IMG/VR virus record: IMGVR_UViG_3300032103_000073
Reading direction: 5' to 3' (one strand)
DNA: 64,000 bases
From: a virus
Lineage: Duplodnaviria > Heunggongvirae > Uroviricota > Caudoviricetes
Both the position numbers and the translations under genes were made by a program. The number at the start of each line of letters is the position of its first letter. Within the stretch, counting starts at the first letter, position 1. Shown one piece after another: positions 43,390 through 62,396 of the stretch. The notes beneath the pieces are model-generated. The model was not told the origin of the DNA, searched no databases, and worked only from the letters and a program-made list of their open reading frames with translations.

Positions 43390-43933
43390 AAAACTTGATA
43401 ATTCTTTTTTAAATTTAGAACTAGATTGGAAGTCGTTTATAACAGATGATATATTTACAGAATATTATTCTAAAAAACGCGGCGGCGGTAGCTTCTTTTA
43501 TACCCTGCCTTGTAGTAAGAAAGACTTCTTAAATCTGCAAAAAAAGAATATTTTTACTATCGAACCAACTTTTATCCAGTACTGCGAATTTACCGGTCCC
43601 GGTTTGGTTACTCCGCATATTGACCGAGGGTCAACTGTTGCATTGAACTTTTACCTGGAACCGCAAGGTGATCGCACAATTTTTTATGAAACTACTTTAG
43701 ACTGTGACAGTGGTACCGGGTACCACGGGGATAAATCAAAGTTGTCATATGTAACAGACTTGAGCACCTTAAAAGAAATAGGATCTTTTGTTGCTGCACC
43801 ACTTGACGTTTATTTGCTAGACGTTAACAAATTGCACGGGATAGAAAAAGTAAACGACCTGCCGCGAACAATGATTACCTTCAGGTGGTTTAAACATTCG
43901 TATGAAGAAGTGTTATCAAGCCTGTCCTTATAA
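43382..43933 (+). CDS. Fe(II)/2OG dioxygenase-like paralog
   Basis: TPHIDRGSTVALNFYL ... KLHGIEK (HxD...H). Confidence 0.4.
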   Translation: MFKKLDNSFLNLELDWKSFITDDIFTEYYSKKRGGGSFFYTLPCSKKDFLNLQKKNIFTIEPTFIQYCEFTGPGLVTPHIDRGSTVALNFYLEPQGDRTIFYETTLDCDSGTGYHGDKSKLSYVTDLSTLKEIGSFVAAPLDVYLLDVNKLHGIEKVNDLPRTMITFRWFKHSYEEVLSSLSL

Positions 43934-43938
43934 AATAA

Positions 43939-43967
43939 TTGACACAAAGGCTAAATAGAAGTACAAT
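43939..43967 (+). promoter_or_regulatory. promoter (TTGACA-N17-TACAAT)
   Basis: upstream of tRNA-Thr. Confidence 0.6.
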
Positions 43968-43975
43968 AACAACAT

Positions 43976-44052
43976 TGCTGGATTAGCTCAGTTGGTAGAG
44001 CACTCGCCTTGTAAGCGAAAGGTCGTCAGTTCGAACCCGACATCCAGCACCA
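43976..44052 (+). tRNA. tRNA-Thr (TGT)
   Basis: cloverleaf; loop CTTGTAA; CCA encoded. Confidence 0.8.
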
Positions 44053-44086
44053 AAGTTAAATTTTTTATCTATTTTGCCAAAAGATA

Positions 44087-44115
44087 TTGACACAAGAGAT
44101 AAATAAACTTATAAT
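44087..44115 (+). promoter_or_regulatory. promoter (TTGACA-N17-TATAAT)
   Basis: consensus hexamers. Confidence 0.6.
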
Positions 44116-44164
44116 AGAAGCTTACGTTAACAAAGTTAGCGTAGAAATTTTTAGGAATAACCAA

Positions 44165-44314
44165 ATGCAAACGATTGCGAAACATTTTAGTCAGTTTAGT
44201 TCACAAGCCAAACAGGTGGCAATGCCCACCTATTGGTGTGCTCTAGGCTCTGGCTCTAATGATCGCACACCGGAGATTAGGTCAGGGTTCCATGAAGGAT
44301 CAGGTTACGCATAA
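44165..44314 (+). CDS. hypothetical small protein
   Basis: ATG 44165 after the promoter (track ORF begins at 44087). Confidence 0.35.
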   Translation: MQTIAKHFSQFSSQAKQVAMPTYWCALGSGSNDRTPEIRSGFHEGSGYA

Positions 44315-44337
44315 GTAATCAAAGAATTCAAAAGGAA

Positions 44338-44370
44338 CCCTGGAACTAAAAACTCCAGGGTTTTTGTTTG
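44338..44370 (+). terminator. rho-independent terminator
   Basis: ccctggaactaaaaactccaggg stem plus T-run. Confidence 0.8.
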
Positions 44371-44379
44371 CTGAAAAGG

Positions 44380-44760
44380 AAAAATGATAGACACCGAGAC
44401 AAGAATTAAACAGCAAGCAGAATGGTTGAAGTTGCATACTTTAACTCAGGAGCAAACGAAAGTTTTGATCCAGAACAAGTTAAGGCGTGCAACAGAGATG
44501 CATACTGCTTTAAACAAGCGAGAGGTGCTTTGTAAGCTCCGTTAAAATCGCAAACGTGGGATAGGGAACGCGACCCTGCAGACACGCAAAACACTGCTAG
44601 TAATGTGGGCGGCCTACCCGATGGTAAGTCTATGGTGAGAACGTAGATGTGTAAAACGGTAGAGTATTAAAGTGTATTAGGTCCCACACCAGGCAATTGG
44701 AGCCGAAATGTCGTCTAGTATACTTTAATACACACATTCGAAAGAGTGTGTTAACAAATA
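44380..44760. other. ORF-free structured region (candidate ncRNA)
   Basis: no ORF of 60 aa or more; multiple inverted repeats (e.g. acacacattcgaaagagtgtgt). Confidence 0.35.
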
Positions 44761-44761
44761 T

Positions 44762-44839
44762 GTACGGGTGGCAGAGAGGCCCAATGCAACGGTCTGCAAA
44801 ATCGTAAAACCGTCGGTTCAAATCCGACCCCGTACTCCA
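44762..44839 (+). tRNA. tRNA-Cys (GCA)
   Basis: cloverleaf; loop CTGCAAA. Confidence 0.65.
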
Positions 44840-44845
44840 AATTTA

Positions 44846-44923
44846 GCGTGGTTAGTGTTTAACGGCCTAGCACGACTGGCTTCCACCCAGTAAGAAAGAG
44901 TTCGAATCTCTTACCCCGCACCA
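44846..44923 (+). tRNA. tRNA-Gly (TCC)
   Basis: loop CTTCCAC; one acceptor mismatch. Confidence 0.6.
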
Positions 44924-44928
44924 AATTT

Positions 44929-45004
44929 ATCCTGTTAGTTTATCGGTTTAGAACAGTGGCCTTTCAAGTCGCAGAGACGGGTTCGATTCCCGTACAGGAT
45001 GCCA
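44929..45004 (+). tRNA. tRNA-Glu (TTC)
   Basis: loop CTTTCAA. Confidence 0.7.
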
Positions 45005-45011
45005 AGTTAGT

Positions 45012-45085
45012 AGGGGTATAGTGTAATGGTAGCACAACACACTTTGACTGTGTCGGTCTAGGTTCAAATCCTGGTACCCCCGCCA
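45012..45085 (+). tRNA. tRNA-Gln (TTG)
   Basis: strong similarity to the E. coli tRNA-Gln scaffold; loop CTTTGAC. Confidence 0.75.
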
Positions 45086-45092
45086 ATTTTAT

Positions 45093-45170
45093 CTCTGCGT
45101 AATGTCAATCTGGTAGACGGCCTGATCTGGAGTCAGGAGGCTGTAGGTTCGAATCCTACCGTGGAGACCA
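45093..45170 (+). tRNA. tRNA-Pro (TGG)-like, atypical (C33)
   Basis: anticodon arm CCTGA-TCTGGAG-TCAGG with C at position 33. Confidence 0.5.
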
Positions 45171-45177
45171 ATTTTAT

Positions 45178-45216
45178 ATCTCCGTAGCTCAATCAGGCAG
45201 AACACCGGTTTTGTAT
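45178..45216 (+). pseudogene. truncated tRNA 5' fragment (acceptor, D-arm and anticodon 5' half)
   Basis: ATCTCCGTAGCTCAATCAGGCAGAACACCGGTTTTGTA; no matching 3' half; resembles the 5' half of the tRNA at 49363. Confidence 0.55.
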
Positions 45217-45225
45217 AAATAAGCT

Positions 45226-45855
45226 ATGAACTATATAATTTACAAGACTACAAATCTGCTAAACGGTATGTACTACATTGGTTCTCATCAAACCAATGAC
45301 TTAAATGACGGATACTTAGGTTCGGGTAAACATTTAAAAAGAGCCATTACTAAGTACGGCAGAGAAAATTTTAAATTTGAAATTCTTTACTTTCTTCCCT
45401 CAAAAGAGGAAATGTTTAAAGTAGAACGAGAAATCGTAAATGAATCTTTTGTGCAAGATCCGCTAACGTATAATTTAAAAATCGGTGGTAGCGGAGGGAA
45501 TCCTGGTATTATCGGAGCTTTTTCTGGAAGAAGGCATACCGAAGAAACTAGAGAAAAAATGAGAGTTTCGAGGTCGAAACAAGCGCCCATGTCAGAAACA
45601 AGTAGACAAAAACTTTCAGAAAATAACTGGTCTAAAAGAGATCCCGGCGCGCATAGAGAACACATGCGTAAGATAGCATCTATGCCACGGTCGGAAGAAC
45701 ATAACAAAAAAGTCGCCGAAGCAAACATAGGCAAAACAATAGTTAATAATGGTATTATTGCTAAAAGAATAGATAAGAAAGATTTGAGCTACTATGAAGA
45801 TAGTGTTGGAAAAGAGGCGCAATGCCTCGTAAGAAATAATATGCCCTTAAGATAA
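45226..45855 (+). CDS. GIY-YIG homing endonuclease (Seg-like)
   Basis: IIYKTTNLLNGMYYIGSH...KRAITKYG GIY-YIG module plus basic C-terminal DNA-binding region. Confidence 0.75.
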   Translation: MNYIIYKTTNLLNGMYYIGSHQTNDLNDGYLGSGKHLKRAITKYGRENFKFEILYFLPSKEEMFKVEREIVNESFVQDPLTYNLKIGGSGGNPGIIGAFSGRRHTEETREKMRVSRSKQAPMSETSRQKLSENNWSKRDPGAHREHMRKIASMPRSEEHNKKVAEANIGKTIVNNGIIAKRIDKKDLSYYEDSVGKEAQCLVRNNMPLR

Positions 45856-45915
45856 CGGCAGTCGTCAGGTCTCCAAAACCTTGAAGTCGCGGTTCGAATC
45901 CGTGAGGGTATGCCA
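45841..45915 (+). tRNA. tRNA-Trp (CCA)
   Basis: acceptor ATGCCCT/AGGGTAT; loop CTCCAAA; overlaps the last 15 nt of the endonuclease ORF. Confidence 0.65.
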
Positions 45916-45922
45916 ATTTAAT

Positions 45923-46014
45923 GGAAAGTAATGCAGCGGGGATGGTCCTGCGACTGGCCTTGAAAACCAGGTTCTCAGAAATGGGATGGGGTTCGACTCC
46001 TCTGCTTTCCGCCA
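45923..46014 (+). tRNA. tRNA-Ser (TGA)
   Basis: type II; loop CTTGAAA; resembles E. coli tRNA-Ser. Confidence 0.75.
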
Positions 46015-46184
46015 ATTTTGAGACTGCTCTACGGGCACTGCAATGAACGTAGACAGGTTGTGTGGTGTGTTGGCAGCACAGCGGAAGCGAGTACCTAACA
46101 GAAAAGTTTGCAGACCGAGTAAGTTAGCGAAAGGGGAGCAGGGTTAGGTTCGAATCCTATCACATTTACTCAAATCTAATATAT
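46015..46184 (+). other. unassigned tRNA-like/structured RNA with a T-arm (GGTTCGAATCC)
   Basis: no ORF; T-arm motif at 46143-46159; no consistent acceptor pairing found. Confidence 0.3.
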
Positions 46185-46278
46185 AGTGAGTTGACAGAGT
46201 CTGGCTAATTGTGCCTCCCTGCTAAGGAGTGCGTCCTTGAAAGAGGGCACAAGGGTTCGAATCCCTTGCTCACTGCCA
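46185..46278 (+). tRNA. tRNA-Ser (GCT)
   Basis: type II; loop CTGCTAA; long variable arm. Confidence 0.75.
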
Positions 46279-46310
46279 AGTTGTCGAATGTTAAGATAAA
46301 TAAATTCATG

Positions 46311-46335
46311 CGGCTGTAGCTCAGTTGGTAGATTT
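46311..46335 (+). pseudogene. truncated tRNA 5' fragment (acceptor plus D-arm)
   Basis: GCGGCTGTAGCTCAGTTGGTAGA followed by unrelated sequence and the HNH gene. Confidence 0.5.
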
Positions 46336-46376
46336 ATGCGATAGAGTATAAATACAGTATAGGAGATACTCTACCA

Positions 46377-46763
46377 ATGAAAGCAATTTGCTTACAATGT
46401 AATAAAGATTTTGAATACGGGCATAGTTCCACTGGGAAGTTTTGTAGCAACCAGTGTAGCGGCTTATATAAGAAAACAGAACATAAACAAAAGTTCTTTT
46501 CAGGTTTGTTAAAACGAATTGAACGACCTACAGCAAGGAAATATCTTGCTGAGGAAAGAGGATATAAATGTGAAGTATGTAGCGTAAGTGATTGGCAAGG
46601 CAAGCCAATCACTTTACATGTAGATCATATAAATGGCGATCCGTCAAACGATCACCCAGGTAACTTAAGGTTAATTTGCCCTAACTGCCATAGTCAAACA
46701 GAGTTTTTGGGTGCGGCAAATAAAGGTAGAGGACGCGGTTCATTAGGAATCGCAAAGTATTAA
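46377..46763 (+). CDS. HNH homing endonuclease
   Basis: CxxC ... HVDHINGDPSNDHPGNLRLICPNCH (HNH with zinc ligands). Confidence 0.75.
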   Translation: MKAICLQCNKDFEYGHSSTGKFCSNQCSGLYKKTEHKQKFFSGLLKRIERPTARKYLAEERGYKCEVCSVSDWQGKPITLHVDHINGDPSNDHPGNLRLICPNCHSQTEFLGAANKGRGRGSLGIAKY

Positions 46764-46838
46764 GCAGGATTAATTCAGTGGTAGAATGTCTCGTTGCCAA
46801 CGAGAATGTCGTCGGTTCGAACCCGACATCCTGCTCCA
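46764..46838 (+). tRNA. tRNA-Gly (GCC)
   Basis: loop TTGCCAA; begins one nt after the HNH stop. Confidence 0.8.
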
Positions 46839-47061
46839 AATAACACGGCTCCTATCATTTGCTCATTGAGGAATGCTTGGGAGTTCTTTTATAAACTTCT
46901 AATGAACGCTCTTGCAGATGCCATGCTGGTAAAAAACTTCATGTCAAACTTTAGCGTATACAAATCGAGAACAAAGATATAGCAAACATCATTAGTCTCT
47001 GTCATAGACAAGTGGATTAATAACCCGCCTTTAGTTATAGAGTCGTATGTTTGCATTAAAA

Positions 47062-47138
47062 TATTTATCATGGGTCTTTAACTCAGTTGGATAGAGTGCC
47101 AGTCTTCGAAACTGGAAGTCGTGGGTTCGAATCCTGCA
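47062..47138 (+). tRNA. tRNA-Arg (TCG)
   Basis: loop CTTCGAA. Confidence 0.7.
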
Positions 47139-47163
47139 AGACCCGCCAATTATAAATATTAAC

Positions 47164-47760
47164 ATGATACTAAAGTACAGAGATCCAAGATTTTATTCTG
47201 TAGATTCGTTGAAGTGCTGGAAAAATGTCAACGTTCCTTTAAATGTTGTTCATCCCGATGCAACTATAGACATTAGATCAAATAGTTTGAAAGAAATATT
47301 GCTTCCATTATCTGCAATAGATCCCAATTTTAAATTATGGTTAGCAGAACTAGGATTAGAAATTTCCCTAGTAAGATTGTTTATTGCTAGTGCAAATTAC
47401 GAGTATACAAAACATGTAGATCGTCAAACATTTAACGACCAGTCAGTGGCGTTAAATTTTGCCTTCGATGACACTGGCACTGTTTTTTCATGGCATAATT
47501 TAAATAAAGATGGCAGGATCGAAGTTACAAAAAATAAAAACAATATCCCGATTTGGAATTTTTCCAACTGTGCTACTGTTTTGGCAGAAGAAATTAAACA
47601 TCGAGAAAATCAGCCGTTTTTAGTCAACACTGGATATATTCATTCTTTAAAAGTTGGCAATCAGGACAGACATTGTTATAGTTATTTCCTGCGGAAAGCC
47701 GGTACAGCCGTTCCGTTGCAATGGGATGATGCAATAATAGCATTTGACAGATTTATATAA
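47164..47760 (+). CDS. Fe(II)/2OG dioxygenase-like paralog
   Basis: KHVDRQ...LNFAFDD...NTGYIHSL; paralog of 52449. Confidence 0.45.
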   Translation: MILKYRDPRFYSVDSLKCWKNVNVPLNVVHPDATIDIRSNSLKEILLPLSAIDPNFKLWLAELGLEISLVRLFIASANYEYTKHVDRQTFNDQSVALNFAFDDTGTVFSWHNLNKDGRIEVTKNKNNIPIWNFSNCATVLAEEIKHRENQPFLVNTGYIHSLKVGNQDRHCYSYFLRKAGTAVPLQWDDAIIAFDRFI

Positions 47761-47764
47761 TTAA

Positions 47765-47839
47765 CTCGCTGTAGTTCAATGGATAGAACAGTTCTCTCCT
47801 AAAGAATAGATCCAAGAATCGAACTTGGTGGCGAGACCA
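47765..47839 (+). tRNA. tRNA-Arg (CCT)
   Basis: loop CTCCTAA; unusual T-loop AATCGAA. Confidence 0.6.
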
Positions 47840-47853
47840 TAAAGGAGATCGTA

Positions 47854-48027
47854 TGAAAACACTTTACTTTGAAAATATTCGCAACCGCGAACGCTTTTAT
47901 TGTAAAAACGCTCGAGACATACATATGATCGACGGCATTGAATACATGAAAGTTTTTAGACTGGGAACGCAACGCGAAGTTCTTGTTAAACGAGAATCTC
48001 TCAAGAAAGTTGCAGAGCCCAAGTAAG
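47854..48027 (+). CDS. hypothetical small protein (57 aa)
   Basis: SD AAAGGAG plus ATG. Confidence 0.35.
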
Positions 48028-48101
48028 GCTGCTATAGTATAATGGTATTACATACCCTTGGTAAGGGTAAAACACAAGTTCAATTCTTGTTAGCAGCACC
48101 A
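48028..48101 (+). tRNA. tRNA-Thr (GGT)
   Basis: loop TTGGTAA. Confidence 0.8.
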
Positions 48102-48105
48102 TTAA

Positions 48106-48134
48106 TTGACACAAAATAGAGAACATGCTACAAT
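48106..48134 (+). promoter_or_regulatory. promoter (TTGACA-N17-TACAAT)
   Basis: drives leader A and the tRNA-like at 48347. Confidence 0.6.
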
Positions 48135-48139
48135 AGATA

Positions 48140-48346
48140 CAAGTTAAGAAATTAACTGTTTTGATAGATGTTGTTGGGAGCGATCCCCCACAACAGAGAT
48201 GTAAGGTCCTCAACTGCGAGGCGTTAGCAACATTTATCATCTTGTTCTTTAAAAATTTGCAGTGTTGTTTAGGCTGATTGACGGCAATCGAAAAGCAGTC
48301 TGAGTCTTGTCCCCGGCGCACCGCTTTGCCGAGCGTACCGCAGGGA
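48140..48346 (+). other. structured leader A (candidate small RNA), homologous to leader B
   Basis: shared 5' box AGAT(A/G)(C/T)AAGTTAAG(A/C)AATTAACT and a GGGA(A)GCGATC hairpin. Confidence 0.4.
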
Positions 48347-48420
48347 GTCTCTATAGTGTAAGGGTAGCACGCCAGCTTGTAAGAGTTGGAGGATTGGGTT
48401 CGAATCCCAATAGAGTTTAA
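48347..48420 (+). tRNA. tRNA-Gln-scaffold paralog with an 8-nt anticodon loop (TTGTAAGA); no CCA
   Basis: D-arm and T-arm nearly identical to the tRNA-Gln at 45012; stem CCAGC/GTTGG encloses 8 nt. Confidence 0.4.
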
Positions 48421-48453
48421 CAAGACATCAGCCTAAACAACATTGCAAATAAG

Positions 48454-48482
48454 TAGACACAAATTCTTGTGTTTGCTATAAT
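48454..48482 (+). promoter_or_regulatory. promoter (TAGACA-N17-TATAAT)
   Basis: drives leader B and tRNA-Glu. Confidence 0.5.
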
Positions 48483-48489
48483 AGATGTA

Positions 48490-48641
48490 AGTTAAGCAAT
48501 TAACTTACTTGCTCTTTAAAAAGTTCATCCAACATATAAGTCGCTGGGAAGCGATCATTATATGCAAACACATTAGATCAGCTACCGGCGAAGGGAGTAA
48601 CCGGCGATTGTTAAAGTGAGTGTGTTTACATATAATGTTTT
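48490..48641 (+). other. structured leader B (candidate small RNA)
   Basis: homologous to leader A. Confidence 0.4.
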
Positions 48642-48716
48642 ACTCGGTTCGTCTATCGGTTAGGACGACAGCCTTTCAAGTTGTAAAGACGGGTTCGATT
48701 CCCGTACCGAGTACCA
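48642..48716 (+). tRNA. tRNA-Glu (TTC), second copy
   Basis: loop CTTTCAA; T-arm identical to the copy at 44929. Confidence 0.7.
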
Positions 48717-49362
48717 AAAATAATCGTAGCGGTTGATGAGACTGATTAAACAAGTCAACTGAATAATCTCCCACAGATCAGTTGTAAAGGAGAACGTCTA
48801 AACACTAAGGCAATGCTTAGTACTATAGTAGATGGAAACCGACCCCTGTCAGAGCGCGGGGGCTTTTACAGTGTTTATAGTAGAGTAGGAAGTATCCGAA
48901 GCGACTTAGTTAGGATGCAGCCAACAGACCAACATTGACCGCGTAGATAGTCCGGACTATCGCTTGAAACGGAAGATGCGTCCACCCCCTGCCCTGCTTT
49001 ACTATAAACACTGTGAACGATGCGAAAGTAAGTCGGTCCAGTAGGGTAAGGAAAAGTATTGCTAGCGGAAAGAGCTGCCGAAGGACAGAAGTTAGTCCCG
49101 CATGGCAATGACTAATGCGGATAGGCTAACGCCGTGTAATCCTTCAAGAATTTGCTAACACAGGGTGGATTTACATGCCGATGTGTTTAATGTTGTTTAA
49201 AACCGAGCAGTGTGCCTTATCAGCGCAATAGTTAGACTCTACCTGGCAACAGCAAACCAAATGTAAGATAGTTGCTATCGCGTCCTGCAGGTAAGTTAGC
49301 AACCGTAACATCACGGACGGGCGTATTTTATGCCGTGTAATCAAATGCGACTCAGTAATTTA
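48717..49362 (+). other. about 640-nt ORF-free structured region (candidate ribozyme or ncRNA; group-I-intron-like P7 elements)
   Basis: AGATAGTCCGGACTA (48947-48961) and GTTAGTCCCGCATGG / GACTAATGCGGATA about 140 nt downstream; G/C-rich helices. Confidence 0.35.
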
Positions 49363-49437
49363 GCTCTGTTATTTCATGTGGTAGAATACCGGTTTTGTAG
49401 TCCGGAGAGGGCAGTTCAAGTCTGTCACGGAGCACCA
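49363..49437 (+). tRNA. tRNA with anticodon arm CCGGT-TTTGTAG-TCCGG (TGT, Thr-like; U:U closing pair)
   Basis: cloverleaf with CCA; anticodon assignment uncertain. Confidence 0.5.
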
Positions 49438-49503
49438 TATTAAAACACATTACTAAGAGTCCAGGTTCATAGCGTGGCCTAGTGTGTTTTAATATGTTTA
49501 TGT

Positions 49504-49581
49504 CCGGGTGTAGCGCAGTCTGGTTAGCGCATCTGCTTTGGGAGCAGAGGGTCGTGAGTTCGAATCCCACCACCCGGACCA
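49504..49581 (+). tRNA. tRNA-Pro (TGG)
   Basis: loop TTTGGGA. Confidence 0.75.
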
Positions 49582-49590
49582 AGTTTATGT

Positions 49591-49668
49591 TGGGGTATAG
49601 CTTAGTTTGGCCTAAAGCAACGGTCTTTGAAATCGTGATCACTGGTTCGAATCCAGTTACCTCTGCCA
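49591..49668 (+). tRNA. tRNA-Gln (TTG), second copy
   Basis: loop CTTTGAA; U1:U72. Confidence 0.6.
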
Positions 49669-49724
49669 AGTTTTAGGAGAATCGCGTAAGCGTATTCTTA
49701 ATCGACCCAGTATCAGGGCGTCCT

Positions 49725-49752
49725 GACATTAGTATTTTTTGGGGGCAGCAGC
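49725..49752 (+). terminator. hairpin plus T-run (weak terminator)
   Basis: tcagggcgtcctga ... tttttt. Confidence 0.35.
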
Positions 49753-49827
49753 GGGCTGCGGTGATCCCTTGCAAGGATCATGACTAGAAGGGTTCAACTC
49801 CCTCGGCCTCCACCAAACAATGCCCGG
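49753..49827 (+). tRNA. tRNA-Ala (TGC)-like
   Basis: G3:U70; loop CTTGCAA; atypical D region and 8-nt variable loop; T-loop TTCAACT. Confidence 0.5.
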
Positions 49828-49833
49828 TTAATT

Positions 49834-49907
49834 AAATGGTATAATACACCCCTGATAAGGGTGAATCACTGGATCGTAACCAGTACTGGGTACCAATGTT
49901 AGTTAGA
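49834..49907 (+). tRNA. tRNA-Ile (GAT)
   Basis: loop CTGATAA. Confidence 0.7.
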
Positions 49908-49948
49908 GCATTCTGTTGATCTATGATAAATAATATTATGGAGACAAT

Positions 49949-50542
49949 ATGTTTTGTAAATTTTGCAACAAAGAATGTAAGAATAAGAATAGTCTAGTAA
50001 ACCATGAGCGTTTATGTCCAGCGAACCCTGACAGAAAATATGTGTCACACACGCTAGGTAAAAACGGTCATGTCGCTTGGAATAAAGGACTGTCCAAAGA
50101 AACTTCTAGATCTTTGGCACAGTTAAGTGAAACACATAAGCGAAACGGTCACGGTGGCTGGTCTAAGAAAGCTAGTTCCAACGGAGGCAAAGCAGGTGGC
50201 GGATATCGTGAAAATGCAGGAAGAAGTAAGAAATTCAAAGTAGTCGATTCTTTCGACAAAACGGTGTGCTTGCAAAGCACATACGAACTTAGATGCAGTC
50301 GACTATTGAATGAGTTGGGCATTAAGTGGATAAGACCATCAGCATTAAAGTATGATAGTAAAAATTATTTTGCTGATTTTTATTTACCGGAGTATGATTT
50401 GTATCTAGATCCAAAGAATAATTATAAAGCAAAATTGGATACTGACAAAATCAATAAAGTAAAAGAACAAAATAATGTAAGAGTTGTGATTCTCACTGAG
50501 GATCAGTTGACTCAAGATTATATAAAAAGCCTTTGTAGTTAA
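49949..50542 (+). CDS. zinc-finger protein, possible homing-endonuclease-like
   Basis: N-terminal CKFC...HERLC zinc finger; basic middle region; inserted between tRNAs. Confidence 0.35.
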   Translation: MFCKFCNKECKNKNSLVNHERLCPANPDRKYVSHTLGKNGHVAWNKGLSKETSRSLAQLSETHKRNGHGGWSKKASSNGGKAGGGYRENAGRSKKFKVVDSFDKTVCLQSTYELRCSRLLNELGIKWIRPSALKYDSKNYFADFYLPEYDLYLDPKNNYKAKLDTDKINKVKEQNNVRVVILTEDQLTQDYIKSLCS

Positions 50543-50602
50543 ATGGTATAACGGTCGCTTGATAAGCGATTATTACAAGTTCAATTCTTGTCGAAGGCAC
50601 CA
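50529..50602 (+). tRNA. tRNA-Ile (GAT)-like, second copy
   Basis: loop TTGATAA; overlaps the preceding ORF's 3' end. Confidence 0.55.
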
Positions 50603-50841
50603 AGTTTTGTAGCGTTAGCAAGAGAAAAGTACCAATTCGTGTAGCTGGCCAGCGAAAGAGGAGGTAAAACAGGAGGGGGTTCAACTCCCCACCGCGGGTA
50701 GCCATGCGGTAGCTGGAATGGAGCATCTGACCAAGTATCCCAAGTAACAAGTCCTGGAAGAACTCGACGTAAGGAAGTCCGGCTCTGTACGTCTAAACAC
50801 TAGTGATAAACCTGAGGACGCTAGGCTACAAATTAATTTAT
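50603..50841 (+). other. ORF-free structured region with a tmRNA-type T-arm motif (GGGGGTTCAACTCCCC)
   Basis: motif at 50667-50682; no CCA end. Confidence 0.3.
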
Positions 50842-50917
50842 TCCCCAGTAGCACAGCGGTAGTTGCGCCTGACTGTTAATCAGGATGTCCGTGGTTCGAT
50901 CCCACGCTGGGGAGCCA
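50842..50917 (+). tRNA. tRNA-Asn (GTT)
   Basis: loop CTGTTAA. Confidence 0.75.
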
Positions 50918-50971
50918 ATTAATAAACACATTGCCGAGCGACGAAGGAAATGAGTAGTGTGTTTTTTAATT

Positions 50972-51061
50972 GGAGAGTGTTCCCGTCAGCGGCCTGTAAA
51001 GTCGTTGTCCTTAATTTGGCGGGTGGCTGGACAGATGGTTCGATTCCTTCACTCTTCACCA
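50972..51061 (+). tRNA. tRNA-Tyr (GTA)-like, atypical (reduced D-arm, about 28-nt variable arm)
   Basis: acceptor GGAGAGT/ACTCTTC; anticodon arm GCGGC-CTGTAAA-GTCGT as in E. coli tRNA-Tyr. Confidence 0.45.
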
Positions 51062-51066
51062 ATTTT

Positions 51067-51141
51067 GGCCTTGTCATATAGTGGTTATTATACCGGTCTG
51101 TCTAATCGGATATCGGGGTTCGATTCCCCGCAAGGTCGCCA
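51067..51141 (+). tRNA. tRNA-Asp (GTC)
   Basis: loop CTGTCTA (U37). Confidence 0.6.
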
Positions 51142-51148
51142 GTTTAAT

Positions 51149-51225
51149 GCGTCTGTAGCTCAGTTGGATAGAGTACTTGGCTACGAACCAAGGGGTCGTG
51201 GGTTCGAATCCTGCCAGACGCGCCA
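51149..51225 (+). tRNA. tRNA-Arg (ACG)
   Basis: loop CTACGAA. Confidence 0.8.
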
Positions 51226-51230
51226 AATAT

Positions 51231-51307
51231 GCCAATGTAGCTCAGACGGTAGTAGCAGCGGATTGAAAATCCGCGTGTCGGTGGTTCGATTCCACTCGTT
51301 GGCACCA
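51231..51307 (+). tRNA. tRNA-Phe (GAA)
   Basis: loop TTGAAAA. Confidence 0.8.
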
Positions 51308-51453
51308 GTTAAGGGATAGACGGTACGATGAGTCCCACACAACCTAGCATTGGGTCTAGCAATGCGAAACGGCAGATCGGTTGAAGTGGTTGTATAAACT
51401 CTTGTATGCGAGACAATCCGGTAAGGTCTGCGGGAACAGACGAGCTGGGCTCC
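51308..51453 (+). other. ORF-free structured spacer (candidate ncRNA)
   Basis: no ORF; G/C-rich hairpins. Confidence 0.3.
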
Positions 51454-51530
51454 CAATCTATATGCCTTGGTGACGGAATTGGTATACGTGCTTGACTCAA
51501 AATCAAGATTCTGTGGGTTCGAGTCCCACC
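51454..51530 (+). tRNA. class-I (short variable arm) tRNA with Leu anticodon CAA
   Basis: arm CTTGA-CTCAAAA-TCAAG; 4-nt variable loop. Confidence 0.55.
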
Positions 51531-51531
51531 C

Positions 51532-51560
51532 AAGGTACCAGTTGACACAAAATAGCAGAT
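51532..51560 (+). promoter_or_regulatory. promoter (TTGACA-N17-TATAAT) plus SD and 7-codon mini-ORF (MKRSGKR)
   Basis: AACAGGAG then ATG 51585 and stop 51606. Confidence 0.55.
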
Positions 51561-51681
51561 GCTATATAATTTAATTTTAAACAGGAGTATGATATGAAAC
51601 GTTCAGGTAAACGATAGTGTCATCCTAGACCCCGTAATTGGTCTGGGTTGGCACGTAAAAGAAAATGTAATTTACGACTAA

Positions 51682-51755
51682 CCCTTCGAGATGTTATGGT
51701 TGCATAGCGGACTCTTAATCCGACAAGTGACGGTTCAAATCCGTCCGGAGGGACC
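51682..51755 (+). tRNA. tRNA-Lys (CTT)
   Basis: loop CTCTTAA; 4-bp anticodon stem. Confidence 0.6.
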
Positions 51756-51761
51756 AATTAT

Positions 51762-51835
51762 GGGATTGAAGCTTTAAGGTGAAGCAACGGACTTTTAATC
51801 CGTAGATCTGGGATCGTTGGCCCAGCAGTCCTACC
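51762..51835 (+). tRNA. tRNA-Lys (TTT)
   Basis: loop CTTTTAA; atypical T-loop. Confidence 0.65.
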
Positions 51836-51956
51836 ATATAAAAACACATTATTAGTTCAGTAGAGAACGATAACAGGCCATCTTTTGGTAGATCAGTATG
51901 TTATAGGACAACAGATGAAATTTCTGTTATAGTGTGTTTCTATATGGTATTTTTAT
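51836..51956 (+). other. spacer with hairpin and T-runs (terminator-like)
   Basis: aacagatgaaatttctgtt hairpin. Confidence 0.3.
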
Positions 51957-52032
51957 GCAGCGTTTAGTGGAGTGGTTACCATACTTGTCTGTGAAACAAG
52001 TGAGAACGGTTCGAATCCGTAACGTCTGCCCA
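51957..52032 (+). tRNA. tRNA-His (GTG) with G-1 and a bulged U in the acceptor 3' strand
   Basis: loop CTGTGAA; G-1:C73. Confidence 0.55.
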
Positions 52033-52227
52033 AACAATATTTTTTGTTAAGCTGTAGTTTAAATGAAAGCCTGAGTGTTTCCCGACGGGGATTAGCAAGG
52101 GACGCGGTAAGTTAGTAGACAAAAACGACAATGGGCCCTGCGTTGTTGGCGGCTACTGATGATGACAATAGAATAACGTCCGCGGAGGACGAGGTGCTCA
52201 GAGTTGAGCCAGCTTTACAAAGAATAT
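52033..52227 (+). other. ORF-free structured region (candidate ncRNA)
   Basis: 195 nt, no ORF. Confidence 0.3.
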
Positions 52228-52303
52228 GGTGATGTAGCTCAGTTGGTAGAGTACCTCCTTCATACGGAGAGTGTCGGCGGTTCAAGTCCGTCCATCACCA
52301 CCA
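52228..52303 (+). tRNA. tRNA-Met (CAT), elongator-like
   Basis: loop TTCATAC. Confidence 0.7.
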
Positions 52304-52310
52304 AATATAA

Positions 52311-52437
52311 TCTGTAGGTGCTGAAACGGTAGACAGCAGACGGCAGTCTGTGTAAAGGGTTCGAATCCCTTGGAAGTCCGCAAGACTTTTAGTATGGTAC
52401 TATTGGTGGTTCGAGTCCATCCCTGCAGACCAAATAA
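52311..52437 (+). ncRNA. about 125-nt tRNA-like element (acceptor CTGTAGG/CCTGCAG, CCA, two T-arm-like hairpins)
   Basis: 7-bp terminal pairing, D-arm-like helix, internal AAGGGTTCGAATCCCTT and GGTGGTTCGAGTCCATC. Confidence 0.4.
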
Positions 52438-52448
52438 ATAAATAGTCA

Positions 52449-53051
52449 ATGGAACAAAAATTTTTATTTGCAGAAAAGTCAAAATGTTTTAGACACATCA
52501 CTATGCCGTTTACCTTTATTCAACCGCATGTTCCTATCGATCTGACTAGCATTACTTCTCCTAAGGAAATACACATTAATATCAATTCAGTAGACGCCTG
52601 TTTTATAACATGGTTGCATAATCTAGGTTTGTATTCACTCCATCCTAGGTTATTTGTTACTCCGCCTGGGACAAAATACAATATCCATGTTGATATTTTG
52701 TTCCCGCGAGAAAATACTGCTACTTATTTAAATTTTCCGTTTAATGACGCTGGTTCATTTATGAGGTGGTTTAATTTAAAAAACGAAAAAAATGCTTATA
52801 TAACAACTACTAGTGTAGAAGACAAAAAATTTCAAGTTATTAATGCAAACGAAGATGATTGCTCTGTTATCGAAATTATGCACGCGCCCGGCAATTCTCC
52901 TATATTAGTTAATGCCGGTTACTTACATGATTTAACGAATCCGAGTAATTTCAGACATTGTTGGAGTTTCCCTTTGCTAAAATTAATCGACAACACACGA
53001 ATAAATTGGGACGAAGCAGTGGAGATTTTTTCCTCTTACATTAAAAATTAA
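52449..53051 (+). CDS. Fe(II)/2OG dioxygenase-like paralog
   Basis: IHVDIL...LNFPFNDAG...NAGYLHDL. Confidence 0.45.
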   Translation: MEQKFLFAEKSKCFRHITMPFTFIQPHVPIDLTSITSPKEIHININSVDACFITWLHNLGLYSLHPRLFVTPPGTKYNIHVDILFPRENTATYLNFPFNDAGSFMRWFNLKNEKNAYITTTSVEDKKFQVINANEDDCSVIEIMHAPGNSPILVNAGYLHDLTNPSNFRHCWSFPLLKLIDNTRINWDEAVEIFSSYIKN

Positions 53052-53574
53052 CAGGTAAGTCAAATATTCGAATCAGTAGCATCACTCGCATATTTGGAGA
53101 TTTGTTTTCTACTCTATGCGGAACTTTAACCGATAGCAAATAAGGCACAGAAGTTTCGTGAGATTCTATTAACTTACAATCATCCGGGTAGTACCTGAAA
53201 AAATGATGAGTTTTTCCTTTATTTTCTACTGTTACTACGTGCGGGTTTGCTAGCGTGTTATAAAAATTTATCCAAGTATTTTCGCACCCAGAAATGGGAA
53301 TGTTTAAACTATATCGGTAAGGACCGCTGTCCATATGATAATTTCCGTTGTCATATCCCATTGTTACATTTATTGCAACCTGGCCTACGCAATGGTTGGG
53401 TAATTTTAGATCATTAATTACTTTTTTGATAGACGGAAGTGTTAAAAAAACATCTTTGTTATTTTCTATATAAGTTAAATTAGTAGAAAGCAAAAGGTGT
53501 TTGGGTATAGACATCAATACTTCGTTTTGTATGTCTGTGAGATTTTCTATATGTATTTCTCTAAAAGGAGCCAT
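53041..53574 (-). CDS. Fe(II)/2OG dioxygenase-like paralog
   Basis: YHMDSGPYRYSLNIPISGCENTWINF...VPHRVEN; paralog of 18783. Confidence 0.45.
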   Translation of the reverse strand: MAPFREIHIENLTDIQNEVLMSIPKHLLLSTNLTYIENNKDVFLTLPSIKKVINDLKLPNHCVGQVAINVTMGYDNGNYHMDSGPYRYSLNIPISGCENTWINFYNTLANPHVVTVENKGKTHHFFRYYPDDCKLIESHETSVPYLLSVKVPHRVENKSPNMRVMLLIRIFDLPVNF

Positions 53575-54195
53575 ACTAGTATTTATAAAATATCTCGCAG
53601 ATCAAGTTTATGTGGCGTGTATAGGTCATACACGATTTCTGGCAGTTGAAGTGACAGGAGTAATTATCCTGAGAACGATACTGGTGCTGGGAGGTAACGT
53701 TGCCCGGCGAGAAATCCGAGATTGTTTGCGTTCGAGTCGCAAACGCTACACACAAAGTTTCTTGCAAGAAGAACAGAGGTACGGTGGTCCTACTTGAGTG
53801 GGGACTATAAAAGCCGACAAACGCCTGGGGTACAACTCCATACGCTCAGCCAAATAAGGCGGATTCTGTTTCTCCGTAACAGCCCTAGCAGGCACCTGAA
53901 AAGGACTTGGGACAGCGTATTGCTACATCGACGACGAAATGTCGAGCTGGAGAATGTAACCAGCATCCATAGTCAATAACATTCATCATTGGTAGATAGC
54001 CTTAAGCGGTTGGCAAACCGGGACTACACTACGAAGCAGCTTAGCCAGCGCGATGAAAAGACCCTTTACGTCGAGAGTGTTATTGACTATGGTCCACAAG
54101 GGTGGTATGTAGGCAACGTGGATTTGCCGAGGACCGGGATTCCTTAACTAGCCAACAACTAGTGCCATATAGTATATTGGTATTACATTTATAAT
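53575..54195 (+). other. about 620-nt ORF-free structured region (candidate ncRNA or ribozyme)
   Basis: no ORF of 100 aa or more; AGGTAACGTTGCCCGG; AACCGGGACTAC / CATAGTC elements. Confidence 0.35.
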
Positions 54196-54270
54196 GTCCG
54201 GTTATTTCAGCGGTAGAATACTTCCATGACACGGAAGAGGTCACTGGTTCGATCCCAGTACCGGACACCA
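54196..54270 (+). tRNA. tRNA-Val (GAC)
   Basis: loop ATGACAC. Confidence 0.7.
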
Positions 54271-54271
54271 A

Positions 54272-54300
54272 TTGACACAAAATCACAGAACAACTATAAT
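54272..54300 (+). promoter_or_regulatory. promoter (TTGACA-N17-TATAAT)
   Basis: upstream of the tRNA at 54304. Confidence 0.6.
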
Positions 54301-54303
54301 AAC

Positions 54304-54380
54304 AACTAATAATGCCCCGGTGGTGGAATTGGTAGACACGCTACGTTGAGGTCGTAGCATTTGCAGGTTCGAGTCCTGTC
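54304..54380 (+). tRNA. class-I tRNA with Leu anticodon GAG (G37)
   Basis: 5' half resembles E. coli tRNA-Leu (TGGTGGAATTGGTAGACAC) but the variable loop is only 4-5 nt. Confidence 0.55.
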
Positions 54381-54432
54381 CAGGGTACCATTGAATGTAA
54401 AGTTAAATACATATGTAAACAAAGGAGTAATC

Positions 54433-54993
54433 ATGTCTGTACTAGCACTCGACATTTCTGGAATCCCACGTCAGTGGATTTCCTTTGATGACGCTATCAC
54501 TTACCACGCCAAAGATGCAGTAGCATGGAGCATGGGAGAAGTAGTAGCGAAGTATCGCGGTGGCTTACAAAATGATGGATCTGAAAGTTACTTGGAAACC
54601 ACTAGCATTATTGCTATTAAGGGTCACGGATTTAATCCCCATAAGCACGGAACTGTGGCGTTGAGCAACCGAACATTGTTTGGTCGTGACCGCAACACTT
54701 GTGCCTACTGCGGGGGTCATTTCCCTAACTATCACCTGTTGAGTAGGGATCATATTGTTCCTAAATATCACGGCGGTGAAAATACTTGGATGAACTGTGT
54801 TACGGCTTGCAAGGAATGTAACAGCAAAAAAGGACATAAGACTTTGAAAGAAGCTCGTATGGAATTGCTCTACGTGCCATATGCACCTAACCACTTTGAA
54901 AATATGATTTTGCAAAACCGAAGCATCATGGCGGATCAGATGGAATATTTGATCCAAGGTGTGCCTAAGCACAGCAGGATCCTGCTTTCATAG
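54433..54993 (+). CDS. HNH endonuclease
   Basis: CAYCGGHF...DHIVPKYHGGENTWMNCVTACKECNSKK; SD GGAG before ATG 54433. Confidence 0.75.
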   Translation: MSVLALDISGIPRQWISFDDAITYHAKDAVAWSMGEVVAKYRGGLQNDGSESYLETTSIIAIKGHGFNPHKHGTVALSNRTLFGRDRNTCAYCGGHFPNYHLLSRDHIVPKYHGGENTWMNCVTACKECNSKKGHKTLKEARMELLYVPYAPNHFENMILQNRSIMADQMEYLIQGVPKHSRILLS

Positions 54994-55005
54994 ATTGAGG
55001 GTGAT

Positions 55006-57161: not shown

Positions 57162-57725
57162 ATGCCCTGGATACAAAATGTCAGCATGAGCGATGTCAAG
57201 CGCGGCTTGCATTTCGAGGCCGGCGAAAATAGCATGCTGATTCAGATTGTTGACCCAGCATATGAGTTTCCTGCACCGTTGAAGCAGTTTAAAGAAGTTC
57301 ATCAGTTTGAATTTCTCGATGTAGAAGCAACTGACTTGGAGTTTGCAGAGTTTGCCTGCACACAAGAGCAAGCAGACCGCTTGGTGGAACTGCTAACTCA
57401 TGCTATGGACAAACGCATGAACGTTCTCGTGCATTGCCATGCAGGTGTTTGCCGCAGTGGTGCAGTCTGCGAAGTAGGTGTTATGATGGGATTTAGCGAC
57501 ACAGAAGTGTTTCGCAGTCCTAACCTGCTGGTCAAGCACTTAATGATGAAGCGACTTGGATGGACCTATGATGCCGATGAAAAGCATAGCACAAACGGCT
57601 ATACTACTCCCAGCGGCATTATTGTTCCCAAGCAAGAATTAGATTGGACAAACGATAACGAAAAGGTGTTTACACTGGCTGATGCCCGGCGCAAGTATCG
57701 TTTTAACACCGGAGAAGATGTATGA
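57162..57725 (+). CDS. protein tyrosine/dual-specificity phosphatase
   Basis: CX5R P-loop VHCHAGVCRSG. Confidence 0.65.
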   Translation: MPWIQNVSMSDVKRGLHFEAGENSMLIQIVDPAYEFPAPLKQFKEVHQFEFLDVEATDLEFAEFACTQEQADRLVELLTHAMDKRMNVLVHCHAGVCRSGAVCEVGVMMGFSDTEVFRSPNLLVKHLMMKRLGWTYDADEKHSTNGYTTPSGIIVPKQELDWTNDNEKVFTLADARRKYRFNTGEDV

Positions 57726-61496: not shown

Positions 61497-62396
61497 ATGT
61501 TTAAAGACGAATTGAAAAAGTATGTAGAGACTTCGGGCTTAGTGAACATGAAGCCCGCTGGGGACGGAATCTTTGTTCTCAAGTATCGCAAAAAAGTTTT
61601 TTATGACAATCTTTGGGACGAGTATCTGGAACACTGCCGCGGGTCAGTGATTGATAAAGACTTTAATCTAATCTCTTATCCGTTTCAGAAAATCTACAAC
61701 TATGGTATCGAAAAGGAAGCACCTGTGCTAGCGGACGACACTGAAGTTTTAGCATATCGCAAAGTCAATGGCTTTATGGTAGCCATGACTTGGTACAATG
61801 GCGACATCTTAGTTTCAACTACAGGTTCTACAGACAGTCCTTATGTTACTATGGCAAAAGAAATGATGTTGACTCATCAATCTTGGGCAGACTGGCAGTT
61901 GGCACTTAACCGTTCAGACATGGATGGCATGACCGTTATGTTTGAGTGTGTTCATCATAACGACCCGCACATCATTCCAGAAAAGCCAGGTATGTATGTA
62001 TTAGGCTATCGTAACAACCAGTTTGGTTCTAAAGTGGGGCACGATCCTTGCGTATTGCAAGACTTGGCGATTGCATTTAACTGCCACAAGCCAGAAAGCG
62101 TAACAGCGTCCATGACGGCAATAAAGAACTTGGCCAAGGAATGCAAGCACGAAGGGTTTGTATTCTATACCGCTGATGGTGTAAGTGCTAAGATCAAGTC
62201 GCCATACTACTTGACTTCAAAGTGGGTTGCTCGCAATCCACGTACAGATAAGTTAGTAGACTTGAACAAGGACATCAAGCACAATATCGACGAGGAGTAT
62301 TATGGGCTCATCGACGCAATCCGATTAAACATCGCGGCTTACACCGCGATGAATGAACAGGAAAGATTAGAGTGGGTTCGTAAGTTCCTCGGATAA
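61497..62396 (+). CDS. ATP-dependent RNA ligase-like nucleotidyltransferase
   Basis: motif I KVNGF; EGFVFY (motif IV); K-x-K (motif V). Confidence 0.6.
   Translation: MFKDELKKYVETSGLVNMKPAGDGIFVLKYRKKVFYDNLWDEYLEHCRGSVIDKDFNLISYPFQKIYNYGIEKEAPVLADDTEVLAYRKVNGFMVAMTWYNGDILVSTTGSTDSPYVTMAKEMMLTHQSWADWQLALNRSDMDGMTVMFECVHHNDPHIIPEKPGMYVLGYRNNQFGSKVGHDPCVLQDLAIAFNCHKPESVTASMTAIKNLAKECKHEGFVFYTADGVSAKIKSPYYLTSKWVARNPRTDKLVDLNKDIKHNIDEEYYGLIDAIRLNIAAYTAMNEQERLEWVRKFLG

Follow-up and report, generated by a model that had tools for sequence, protein, structure and literature searches.

A conserved structured RNA family, apparently undescribed so far, in the tRNA array of an uncultured jumbo phage

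The stretch of DNA analysed here, 64,000 nt of the Caudoviricetes record IMGVR_UViG_3300032103_000073 (hereafter the window), derives from a source sequence of 267 kb, which identifies its owner as a jumbo phage; the phage is present in the lake sample runs SRR4101184 and SRR4101185. Its plus strand carries an array of about 32 tRNA genes from 37.6 to 54.4 kb, among which endonuclease-type genes (about 200 aa) are scattered. We analysed the 646-nt gap between the genes for tRNA-Glu(UUC) and tRNA-Thr(UGU), positions 48717-49362, and report that it contains a conserved folded RNA, termed module 1. A sequence-only reading had described this gap as the longest non-coding stretch of the array, free of open reading frames (ORFs), highly structured and reminiscent of a group I intron. 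No credible ORF was indeed found: the longest is on the minus strand and encodes 77 aa that match neither a Pfam family nor any protein of the window. The claim of greatest length is roughly right, the longer tRNA-free gap 44053-44761 (709 nt) having small conserved reading frames. As a single structured object, however, the gap did not hold up. It is a composite of five parts, namely a leader, module 1, a spacer, module 2 and a 1-nt junction, and strong structure is confined to module 1. From 5' to 3' the gap and its flanks are arranged as follows.

48642-48716, plus strand: tRNA-Glu(UUC), complete (59 bits; Rfam and ARAGORN), the 5' flank
48717-48798, plus strand: leader of 82 nt with two small hairpins, outside the family core
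48799-49146, plus strand: module 1, member of a new family of structured RNAs, 348 nt long here against a consensus of about 205 nt, delimited by covariance model R1
49147-49258, plus strand: spacer of 112 nt, unstructured and unique to this phage
49259-49361, plus strand: module 2, about 100 nt (profile hidden Markov model, E = 7e-29), ending 1 nt before tRNA-Thr
49363-49437, plus strand: tRNA-Thr(UGU), complete (46 bits; Rfam and ARAGORN), the 3' flank

Folding of the whole gap compared to shuffled sequences gave z = -2.4 for the plus and z = -1.3 for the minus strand. The description as highly structured applies to 48799-49146 and above all to 48862-49016 (z = -7.25), where the dominant repeat of the gap, a 25-nt inverted repeat, pairs 48865-48889 with 48993-49017. 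It fails for 49147-49362, where folding is not superior to that of shuffles (z = +1.36); for the leader the signal is weak (z = -1.19).

Relatives of the region were obtained in several rounds. A degenerate multi-k-mer DNA scan derived from a stop-free frame across the region core returned five viral contigs, in which two blocks corresponding to 48800-48865 and 49012-49164 are conserved at 76-88%; these blocks are adjacent in the relatives and 146 nt apart in the window. A 20-mer anchor then yielded 8 loci and a two-anchor pattern applied to metagenomes 22, while an independent 17-mer anchor in block 1 yielded 27 loci, 26 of them true members and none used for R1. Altogether, module 1 was found in about 50 viral and metagenomic contigs representing 42 distinct sequences. 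R1 was built from 17 relatives, leaving out the window and its near-twin, locus L107. It matched the window over model positions 1-205 at 48799-49146 with 169 bits (E about 1e-47) and absorbed 138 extra nt as an insertion in one hairpin. In the alignment the window copy pairs in all five covarying helices described below. Members are 181-251 nt long, except for the copies in the window (348 nt) and in L107 (335 nt), and occur once per array of 20-40 tRNAs. In a search for a second copy in the 3' part of the gap, the last 45 positions of the model matched at only -0.7 bits.

Outside these contigs module 1 was not encountered. In a blastn search of the region against 50,697 cultured phages only the flanking tRNA-Glu was matched, a lenient search of cultured phages, T4-like ones included, with a minimal module 1 member found none, and two invariant patterns had no match in the genomes of 185,579 species of bacteria and archaea. 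Neither the motif nor a description of such an RNA turned up in a literature search, and the text of two large catalogues of phage or prokaryotic structured RNAs does not describe it. At the gathering score, Rfam 15 detected only tRNAs in the whole window; at E<=10, positions 48400-49500 matched no group I or group II intron, RNase P, transfer-messenger RNA (tmRNA), GOLLD, ROOL or self-cleaving ribozyme model. Neither the minimal member (L106 470-700), scanned in its own 231-nt search space, nor the other relatives of module 1 matched any Rfam family over this element, and ARAGORN called no tmRNA. Judged by sequence comparison, module 1 is a previously undescribed RNA family within the known category of tRNA-island-associated phage RNAs.

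The fold of module 1 was derived from comparative alignments. RNAalifold applied to 19 distinct copies (alignment A1) gave a structure of 37 pairs, in which compensatory double changes occur at 13; 96.9% of alignment cells were paired compared to 31-43% in slid controls, and the covariation score was 0.33 versus at most 0.10. In an independent set of 22 distinct copies (A5) pairing amounted to 94.4% versus 33-45% in slid controls, and double-sided changes occurred in 22 of 39 pairs, a number reached by none of 500 shuffles. For all 42 distinct sequences (A6) the values were 96.8% versus 32-41%, with 216 compensatory cells versus at most 38; these statistics ignore phylogeny. An unbiased scan for stacked covarying pairs recovered exactly five helices, P1, Ha, Hb, P5 and He, and no pseudoknot. 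Conservation reaches at least 97% at 74 of the approximately 200 consensus positions, mostly in the junctions and in an invariant irregular helix. In the window the elements of the fold are located as follows.

48809-48815 with 49057-49063, plus strand: P1, long-range helix GGCAAUG / UAUUGCU closing the 5' domain (double-sided changes in 6 of 7 pairs, 98.3% of cells paired)
48827-48836 with 49033-49042, plus strand: invariant irregular helix AGUAGAUGGA / UCGGUCCAGU (99.7% paired)
48843-48862, plus strand: hairpin Ha, CCCCUGU-CAGAGC-GCGGGGG (double-sided changes in 6 of 7 pairs)
48865-49017, plus strand: hairpin Hb with a 145-nt expansion (inverted repeat forming a 25-bp stem, plus a branched tip), containing AGATAGTCCGGACTA
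49080-49145, plus strand: 3' domain, in which P5 encloses GAAG, hairpin He and the invariant CGCCGUGUAA
49080-49087 with 49135-49145, plus strand: P5, GAAGGACA / UG..UCCUUC (double-sided changes in 5 of 5 pairs)
49091-49130, plus strand: hairpin He (double-sided changes in 2 of 3 pairs; loop of 7-49 nt across the family)

As the only changes in the irregular helix are one-sided, with U or C opposite G, the data agree with this helix, yet covariation does not prove it. Every copy runs in the same direction as the tRNAs. Furthermore, G-U pairs, which would be A-C on the opposite strand, are frequent (e.g. GU:28 at pair 11/342). Because of these G-U pairs and the constant orientation, the plus strand is the RNA strand of module 1.

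The window copy owes its length to Hb. The base of this hairpin covaries throughout the family. Most members have either a stem of 3-4 bp capped by a GNRA loop or an Hb of up to 50 nt. The insert comprises 145 nt in the window and L107 and 4-50 nt in all other members. Between the window and L107 the expansion differs at 2 of 146 positions, both changes preserving pairing, compared to about 17% of positions in the leader. It was this rod that made the gap look highly structured.

Such an expansion, with its 25-bp terminal inverted repeats, resembles a miniature inverted-repeat transposable element, the array is littered with endonuclease genes of about 200 aa whose length is similar, and the spacer 49147-49258 is unique and unstructured. 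The region might on these grounds be non-functional or act only as DNA, as a decayed homing-endonuclease gene or tRNA, a mobile insertion, or a recombination or replication site. Protein similarity was detected neither by tblastn with all window ORFs nor by Pfam on the spurious ORFs, and the HNH genes located 3' of module 1 in L093 and L094 have no similarity to the region. Indels are of arbitrary length, substitutions are compensatory, G-U pairs are strand-specific, the orientation relative to the tRNAs is fixed, and a scan of 1.34 Mb of related DNA revealed no further site with the Hb expansion. We therefore consider this explanation hardly credible for the gap as a whole. For module 1 it is refuted by covariation; all that it could account for is the spacer and, perhaps, how the Hb expansion arose.

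The group I intron proposal relied on short strings loosely recalling the R and S elements of such introns, and introns of this class do occur in the clade. The strings are present as quoted, AGATAGTCCGGACTA at 48945-48959, GTTAGTCCCGCATGG at 49091-49105 and GACTAATGCGGATA at 49110-49123. However, the S-like AGATAGTCCGGACTA is a local palindrome inside the rod, which occurs only in the window and L107, and the presumed P7/P9 pairing GTTAGTCCCGCATGG...GACTAATGCGGATA is part of the variable hairpin He, which differs in sequence and length in every relative. Exact scans of viral contigs with 21- and 29-mers of these motifs gave no match because the motifs are lineage-specific. The group I model RF00028 was silent at the gathering score, at E<=10 on 48400-49500 and on L106 470-700, although it detected an intron in the related phage locus L047 (4801-5004), which served as positive control. 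This match is itself borderline (50.2 bits, gathering score 50) and lies outside the tRNA genes called there. Moreover, the family fold lacks the P3-P8/P4-P6 architecture. There are no exons to join, since both flanking tRNAs are complete, and in relatives module 1 lies between differing tRNA pairs or behind a promoter. As the motifs fall into a window-specific hairpin extension and a variable hairpin, the group I reading was rejected, and we attach next to no probability to an intron or intron remnant. The fallback offered alongside it, a large non-coding RNA (ncRNA) or free-standing ribozyme remnant, was essentially right for 48799-49146, where covariation among related phages is strong; none of the group I, group II, RNase P and tmRNA models proposed for the check matches the region.

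The niche of module 1 is shared by two known RNAs, GOLLD and ROOL, which form RNA-only nanocages, as was recently shown. Both are located near phage tRNA islands, and tRNAs occur in the GOLLD linker (PMC12286853). In phages related to the window the GOLLD model RF02032 scored 191-222 bits at three loci, each with a tRNA embedded in the linker.

L016 3196-3657, plus strand: GOLLD
L008 2082-2549, plus strand: GOLLD
L093 414-877, minus strand: GOLLD

Since GOLLD was found in L008 and L016, the tRNA arrays of this freshwater clade host ornate RNAs. The arrays of the related phages contain several conserved ORF-free families, two of which together constitute the GOLLD RNA; one conserved part of about 500 nt ("family A") lies 5' of the GOLLD region modelled by Rfam. 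Another inter-tRNA family ("family C"), conserved and largely ORF-free, with 59-80% identity, was seen at L019 4119-4562, L075 4134-4796 and L046 656-1969, with further members at L080 2808-3408, L047 5981-6494 and L074 12297-12841; none of the members scanned matched Rfam at the gathering score.

Module 1 resembles GOLLD in being a phage-encoded, ornate and conserved ncRNA that is co-oriented with the tRNAs of its array, in residing in the same clade (GOLLD in L008, L016 and L093), and in that tRNAs may lie between its parts: in some relatives a tRNA separates modules 1 and 2, which recalls the linker tRNAs. In addition, a weak profile match to the GOLLD 3' region was obtained at 49086-49141 (E = 1.6), sharing GUGUAAUC. 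We nevertheless regard the possibility that module 1 is a highly divergent GOLLD or ROOL as very improbable. The GOLLD model, which represents the 3' domain conserved in all GOLLD RNAs and scores so high in relatives, gave nothing at E<=10 on 48400-49500 nor at E<=5 on 43500-55000, and no match in sequence or structure was found between the two RNAs. Conversely, R1 was silent in the GOLLD-bearing L008 and L016, and in L093 GOLLD is a separate co-resident unit, 2 kb from module 1 with four tRNAs in between. GOLLD exceeds 800 nt and forms a multimeric cage, whereas module 1 comprises about 205 nt. ROOL is likewise a structured phage or prophage RNA, often near tRNA islands (PMC12286853). With about 580-660 nt, 19 stems and pseudoknots it differs from module 1 with its 5-6 helices, and it occurs mainly in Firmicutes and rumen samples, whereas module 1 was found only in uncultured jumbo phages. 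The ROOL model RF03087 matched neither the region nor the minimal member.

The position of module 1 relative to tRNAs is characteristic. Many copies begin -2 to 5 nt from the CCA end of a tRNA or tRNA-like sequence, most often tRNA-Tyr, and in many loci the next tRNA follows 7-24 nt downstream; typical distances are 0-4 nt on the upstream and 7-11 nt on the downstream side, and in L139 and L149 the upstream gap is 0 nt. In several others the upstream gap is 69-304 nt. Three copies (L099, L102 and L105) have no nearby tRNA. In L099 a perfect 12/12 sigma-70 promoter (TTGACA-16-TGnTATAAT) ends 16 nt upstream of module 1, and other copies have a -10 box positioned for initiation at the conserved RAAUACUAAG. 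Thus, the tRNA-processing route and the initiation route would lead to a similar 5' end, which supports the view of module 1 as a discrete RNA whose ends may be set by tRNA processing or by initiation.

The proximity to tRNA 3' ends also raises the main rival explanation, that module 1 acts in cis as a self-cleaver for tRNA 3'-end maturation, in parallel to the hepatitis delta virus (HDV)-like theta ribozymes of gut phages. The cleavage site of theta ribozymes is no more than 5 nt to either side of a phage tRNA 3' end; tRNA association holds for about 58% of their occurrences, and the remainder are isolated (PMC10879173). In many loci, but not in the window (82 nt), in several relatives or in the free-standing copies, the 5' boundary of module 1 likewise lies at a tRNA 3' end (0-5 nt after the CCA end). 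A minority of copies isolated from tRNAs is common to both, and the near-invariant junction nucleotides of module 1 are typical of catalytic cores. However, theta ribozymes are nested double pseudoknots of about 50-60 nt with demonstrated self-cleavage that can follow many tRNAs. Module 1 is roughly four times larger, has no nested double pseudoknot detectable by covariation, and occurs as a single copy per 20-40 tRNAs, which offers no general solution for tRNA ends. It lies 69-304 nt from a tRNA in the window and several relatives, free-standing promoter-driven copies exist, and HDV-like, hatchet, twister, pistol and hammerhead models were silent at E<=10. We consider cis-cleavage of this kind unlikely.

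Module 1 might alternatively represent a new class of ribozyme acting in trans or of RNA that recognises tRNAs, for instance a reduced or rearranged RNase P-like RNA with which the phage would process its own tRNA precursors. Location inside tRNA arrays and the level of conservation would fit. By eye, three invariant stretches look like conserved regions of RNase P: GAAAGUAAGUCGGUCCAGUAGGGUAAGG like GGAAAGUCCGGGCUCCAUAGGGCAGGG, UAGAUGGAA like UAGAUGAAUGA, and GACAGAAG like GACAGAAC. These look-alike motifs stand in another order than in RNase P, the covarying helices lack the P4 pseudoknot (CR-I/CR-V), and the resemblance is possibly a coincidence. Furthermore, the bacterial A and B, archaeal, nuclear and type T models (RF00010, RF00011, RF00373, RF00009 and RF02357) gave no match at E<=10, even in the 231-nt search space of the minimal member. 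We therefore give this alternative little credence.

Another precedent is provided by species 1 and 2 of phage T4 (rnaC and rnaD), small stable RNAs inside the T4 tRNA cluster that share a transcript with the tRNAs, from which the tRNA-processing nucleases of the host release them. Module 1 is larger and far more conserved in sequence than these RNAs, and no similarity to it was found in cultured phages. A comparable biogenesis can be proposed for it from the following elements around the gap.

48454-48482, plus strand: promoter-like site TAGACA-17-TATAAT with TG before the -10 box (11/12 consensus match)
48556-48637, plus strand: boundary hairpin H1 upstream of tRNA-Glu, with 17-nt arms CATTATATGCAAACACA / TGTGTTTACATATAATG (94% complementary)
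49436-49496, plus strand: boundary hairpin H2, an inverted repeat CATATTAAAACACATTA / TAGTGTGTTTTAATATG (0 expected by chance)

The site at 48454-48482 is likely the start of a transcript carrying H1, tRNA-Glu, the RNA modules and tRNA-Thr, and module 1 would be transcribed together with the tRNAs, in the window probably from this site. Its 5' end would be set by 3' processing of the upstream tRNA or, in free-standing copies, by initiation at RAAUACUAAG. RNase P acts at the 5' ends of tRNAs; by cutting at the tRNA that follows within a few nucleotides it would set the 3' end of module 1, and in the window cleavage at the 5' end of tRNA-Thr would define the 3' end of module 2. Once free, module 1 would most likely persist as a stable, structured RNA and act in trans by binding, during infection, to a conserved partner.

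With moderate confidence, we propose that 48799-49146 on the plus strand encodes a compactly folded ncRNA of a new family that is co-transcribed with the tRNAs, released by their processing and trans-acting, in a role such as is presumed for GOLLD and ROOL. Three features favour a trans-acting role: some copies are free-standing, each array has a single copy, and the core is conserved to a degree seen in ribozymes. We favour a self-contained RNA that would merely use the array for its expression and processing. A bolder version, to which we assign a low probability, sees module 1 as the core of a new ribozyme or tRNA-directed RNA machine, either a self-cleaver freeing tRNA 3' ends or a trans RNA that processes, protects or sequesters tRNAs against host anticodon nucleases. 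A phosphatase and an Rnl1-type RNA ligase, ingredients of tRNA repair, are encoded downstream of the array.

Several observations weigh against the proposed role. Transcription and processing of module 1 are inferred from context alone, and the fold names no function. In the window the tight layout is broken, with 82 nt between the upstream tRNA and module 1 and another 216 nt before the next tRNA. All sampling was anchored on invariant motifs, so that the apparent conservation is inflated. The irregular helix, helix 3 of the model, never covaries, and a small helix 2 (UACU/GGUA) of the first model was only 55% paired on the independent set A5, failed there and was dropped from the consensus. 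Finally, a phosphatase of the DSP type, 8 kb downstream, has relatives in 326 IMG/VR contigs (63-79% aa identity), and 80 of these loci, nearly all with similar, heavily rearranged tRNA arrays, contained no module 1, which indicates that it is dispensable for this type of phage. A gene 1 kb upstream was found only in this phage and in contigs that are identical to the window or end before the region.

Besides the window, 17 loci contain module 2, in about 13 distinct versions (E = 1e-23 to 1e-32). All of them also carry module 1, with module 2 lying 10-1199 nt downstream of it and sometimes a tRNA in between. The ten copies whose 3' junction was inspected end 0-2 nt before a tRNA. A helix GUUGyr/yrCAAC has two covarying pairs and the remainder is near-invariant. 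Towards its 3' end, GGACGGGCGUA..UAUGCCGUGUAAU is reminiscent of the 3' end of module 1, although at only -0.7 bits. In three of the loci (L126, L109 and L120) a 70-nt tRNA called as Ser(AGA) lies 23-92 nt after module 1 and before module 2; it is devoid of the long variable arm expected of a tRNA-Ser.

The remaining parts of the gap are of narrow distribution. The leader is common only to the window, L107 and L148, and its first hairpin covaries among the three (GUUGA/UCAAC, GUCGG/UCGAU and ACUGA/UCAGU). For the spacer no homologue was detected in related loci totalling 1.34 Mb. L107 lacks it, tRNA-Thr there beginning 11 nt after module 1. Its end ...GCAAACCA aligns weakly where relatives have a tRNA 3' end, and no tRNA signal was found in it at E<=10; the spacer may be a decayed tRNA.

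H1, H2 and a hairpin after GOLLD in relatives are of one type, and H2 matches the 3' end of a GOLLD-flank profile (E = 0.0013). This long hairpin, with arms ...AAACACATTA / TAGTGTGTTT..., recurs in the window at 48556-48637, 49436-49496 and approximately 51842-51939, as well as 3' of GOLLD in loci of the L016/L008 type and 3' of module 1 in L105. It brackets the tRNA/RNA units of the arrays and may be a processing (RNase III-type) or termination signal.

Elsewhere in the array, the tRNA at 48346-48419 (Rfam tRNA, 46 bits) has an 8-nt anticodon loop, UUGUAAGA, with the ARAGORN anticodon 'gtaa'. An ordinary tRNA-Tyr(GUA) was not called in the window, and relatives have normal tRNA-Tyr genes of 84-88 nt; the tRNA at 48346-48419 may be an unusual tRNA-Tyr or a four-base decoder. 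Another tRNA at 47765-47836 was found by Rfam (45.7 bits) and missed by ARAGORN, and sub-threshold Rfam matches resembling tRNA-Sec occur in the inter-tRNA spacers at 45923-46010 and 50971-51058 (34.7 and 26.5 bits); all three may be unusual or decaying tRNAs. The tRNA-free gap 44053-44761 folds strongly (z = -9.64) and was considered as a sibling large ncRNA. This was rejected, as its alignment with L043 275-1030 revealed a small-gene cassette: two short reading frames, both conserved and preceded by Shine-Dalgarno sequences, are accompanied by a TTGACA/TATAAT promoter, an intrinsic terminator and a hairpin at the end. Around the array, the window encodes a metallophosphoesterase (27511-28362), the DSP-type phosphatase (57162-57725) and the Rnl1-like RNA ligase (61497-62396), whose nearest cultured relatives are in Burkholderiales phages, namely those of Acidovorax, Variovorax and Ralstonia (38-45% identity); the host is on this ground probably a freshwater member of the Burkholderiales. 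The three genes suggest a tRNA-repair and counter-defence neighbourhood.

Phage tRNA arrays are increasingly viewed as modules for counter-defence and translation takeover, and GOLLD and ROOL, which reside in them, are among the most striking RNAs without an assigned function. Module 1 adds to this niche a third, unrelated and smaller family, with about one third of its nucleotides near-invariant and a fold supported by covariation. It also illustrates how a gap that looks ORF-free and structured may turn out to be a mosaic, with functional RNA in just one portion. At about 200 nt it is a tractable object, small enough for chemical probing, crystallography, cryo-electron microscopy and ribozyme assays, and nature supplies variants as controls: minimal 181-nt forms, the 145-nt expansion, promoter-driven free-standing copies and the co-occurring module 2.

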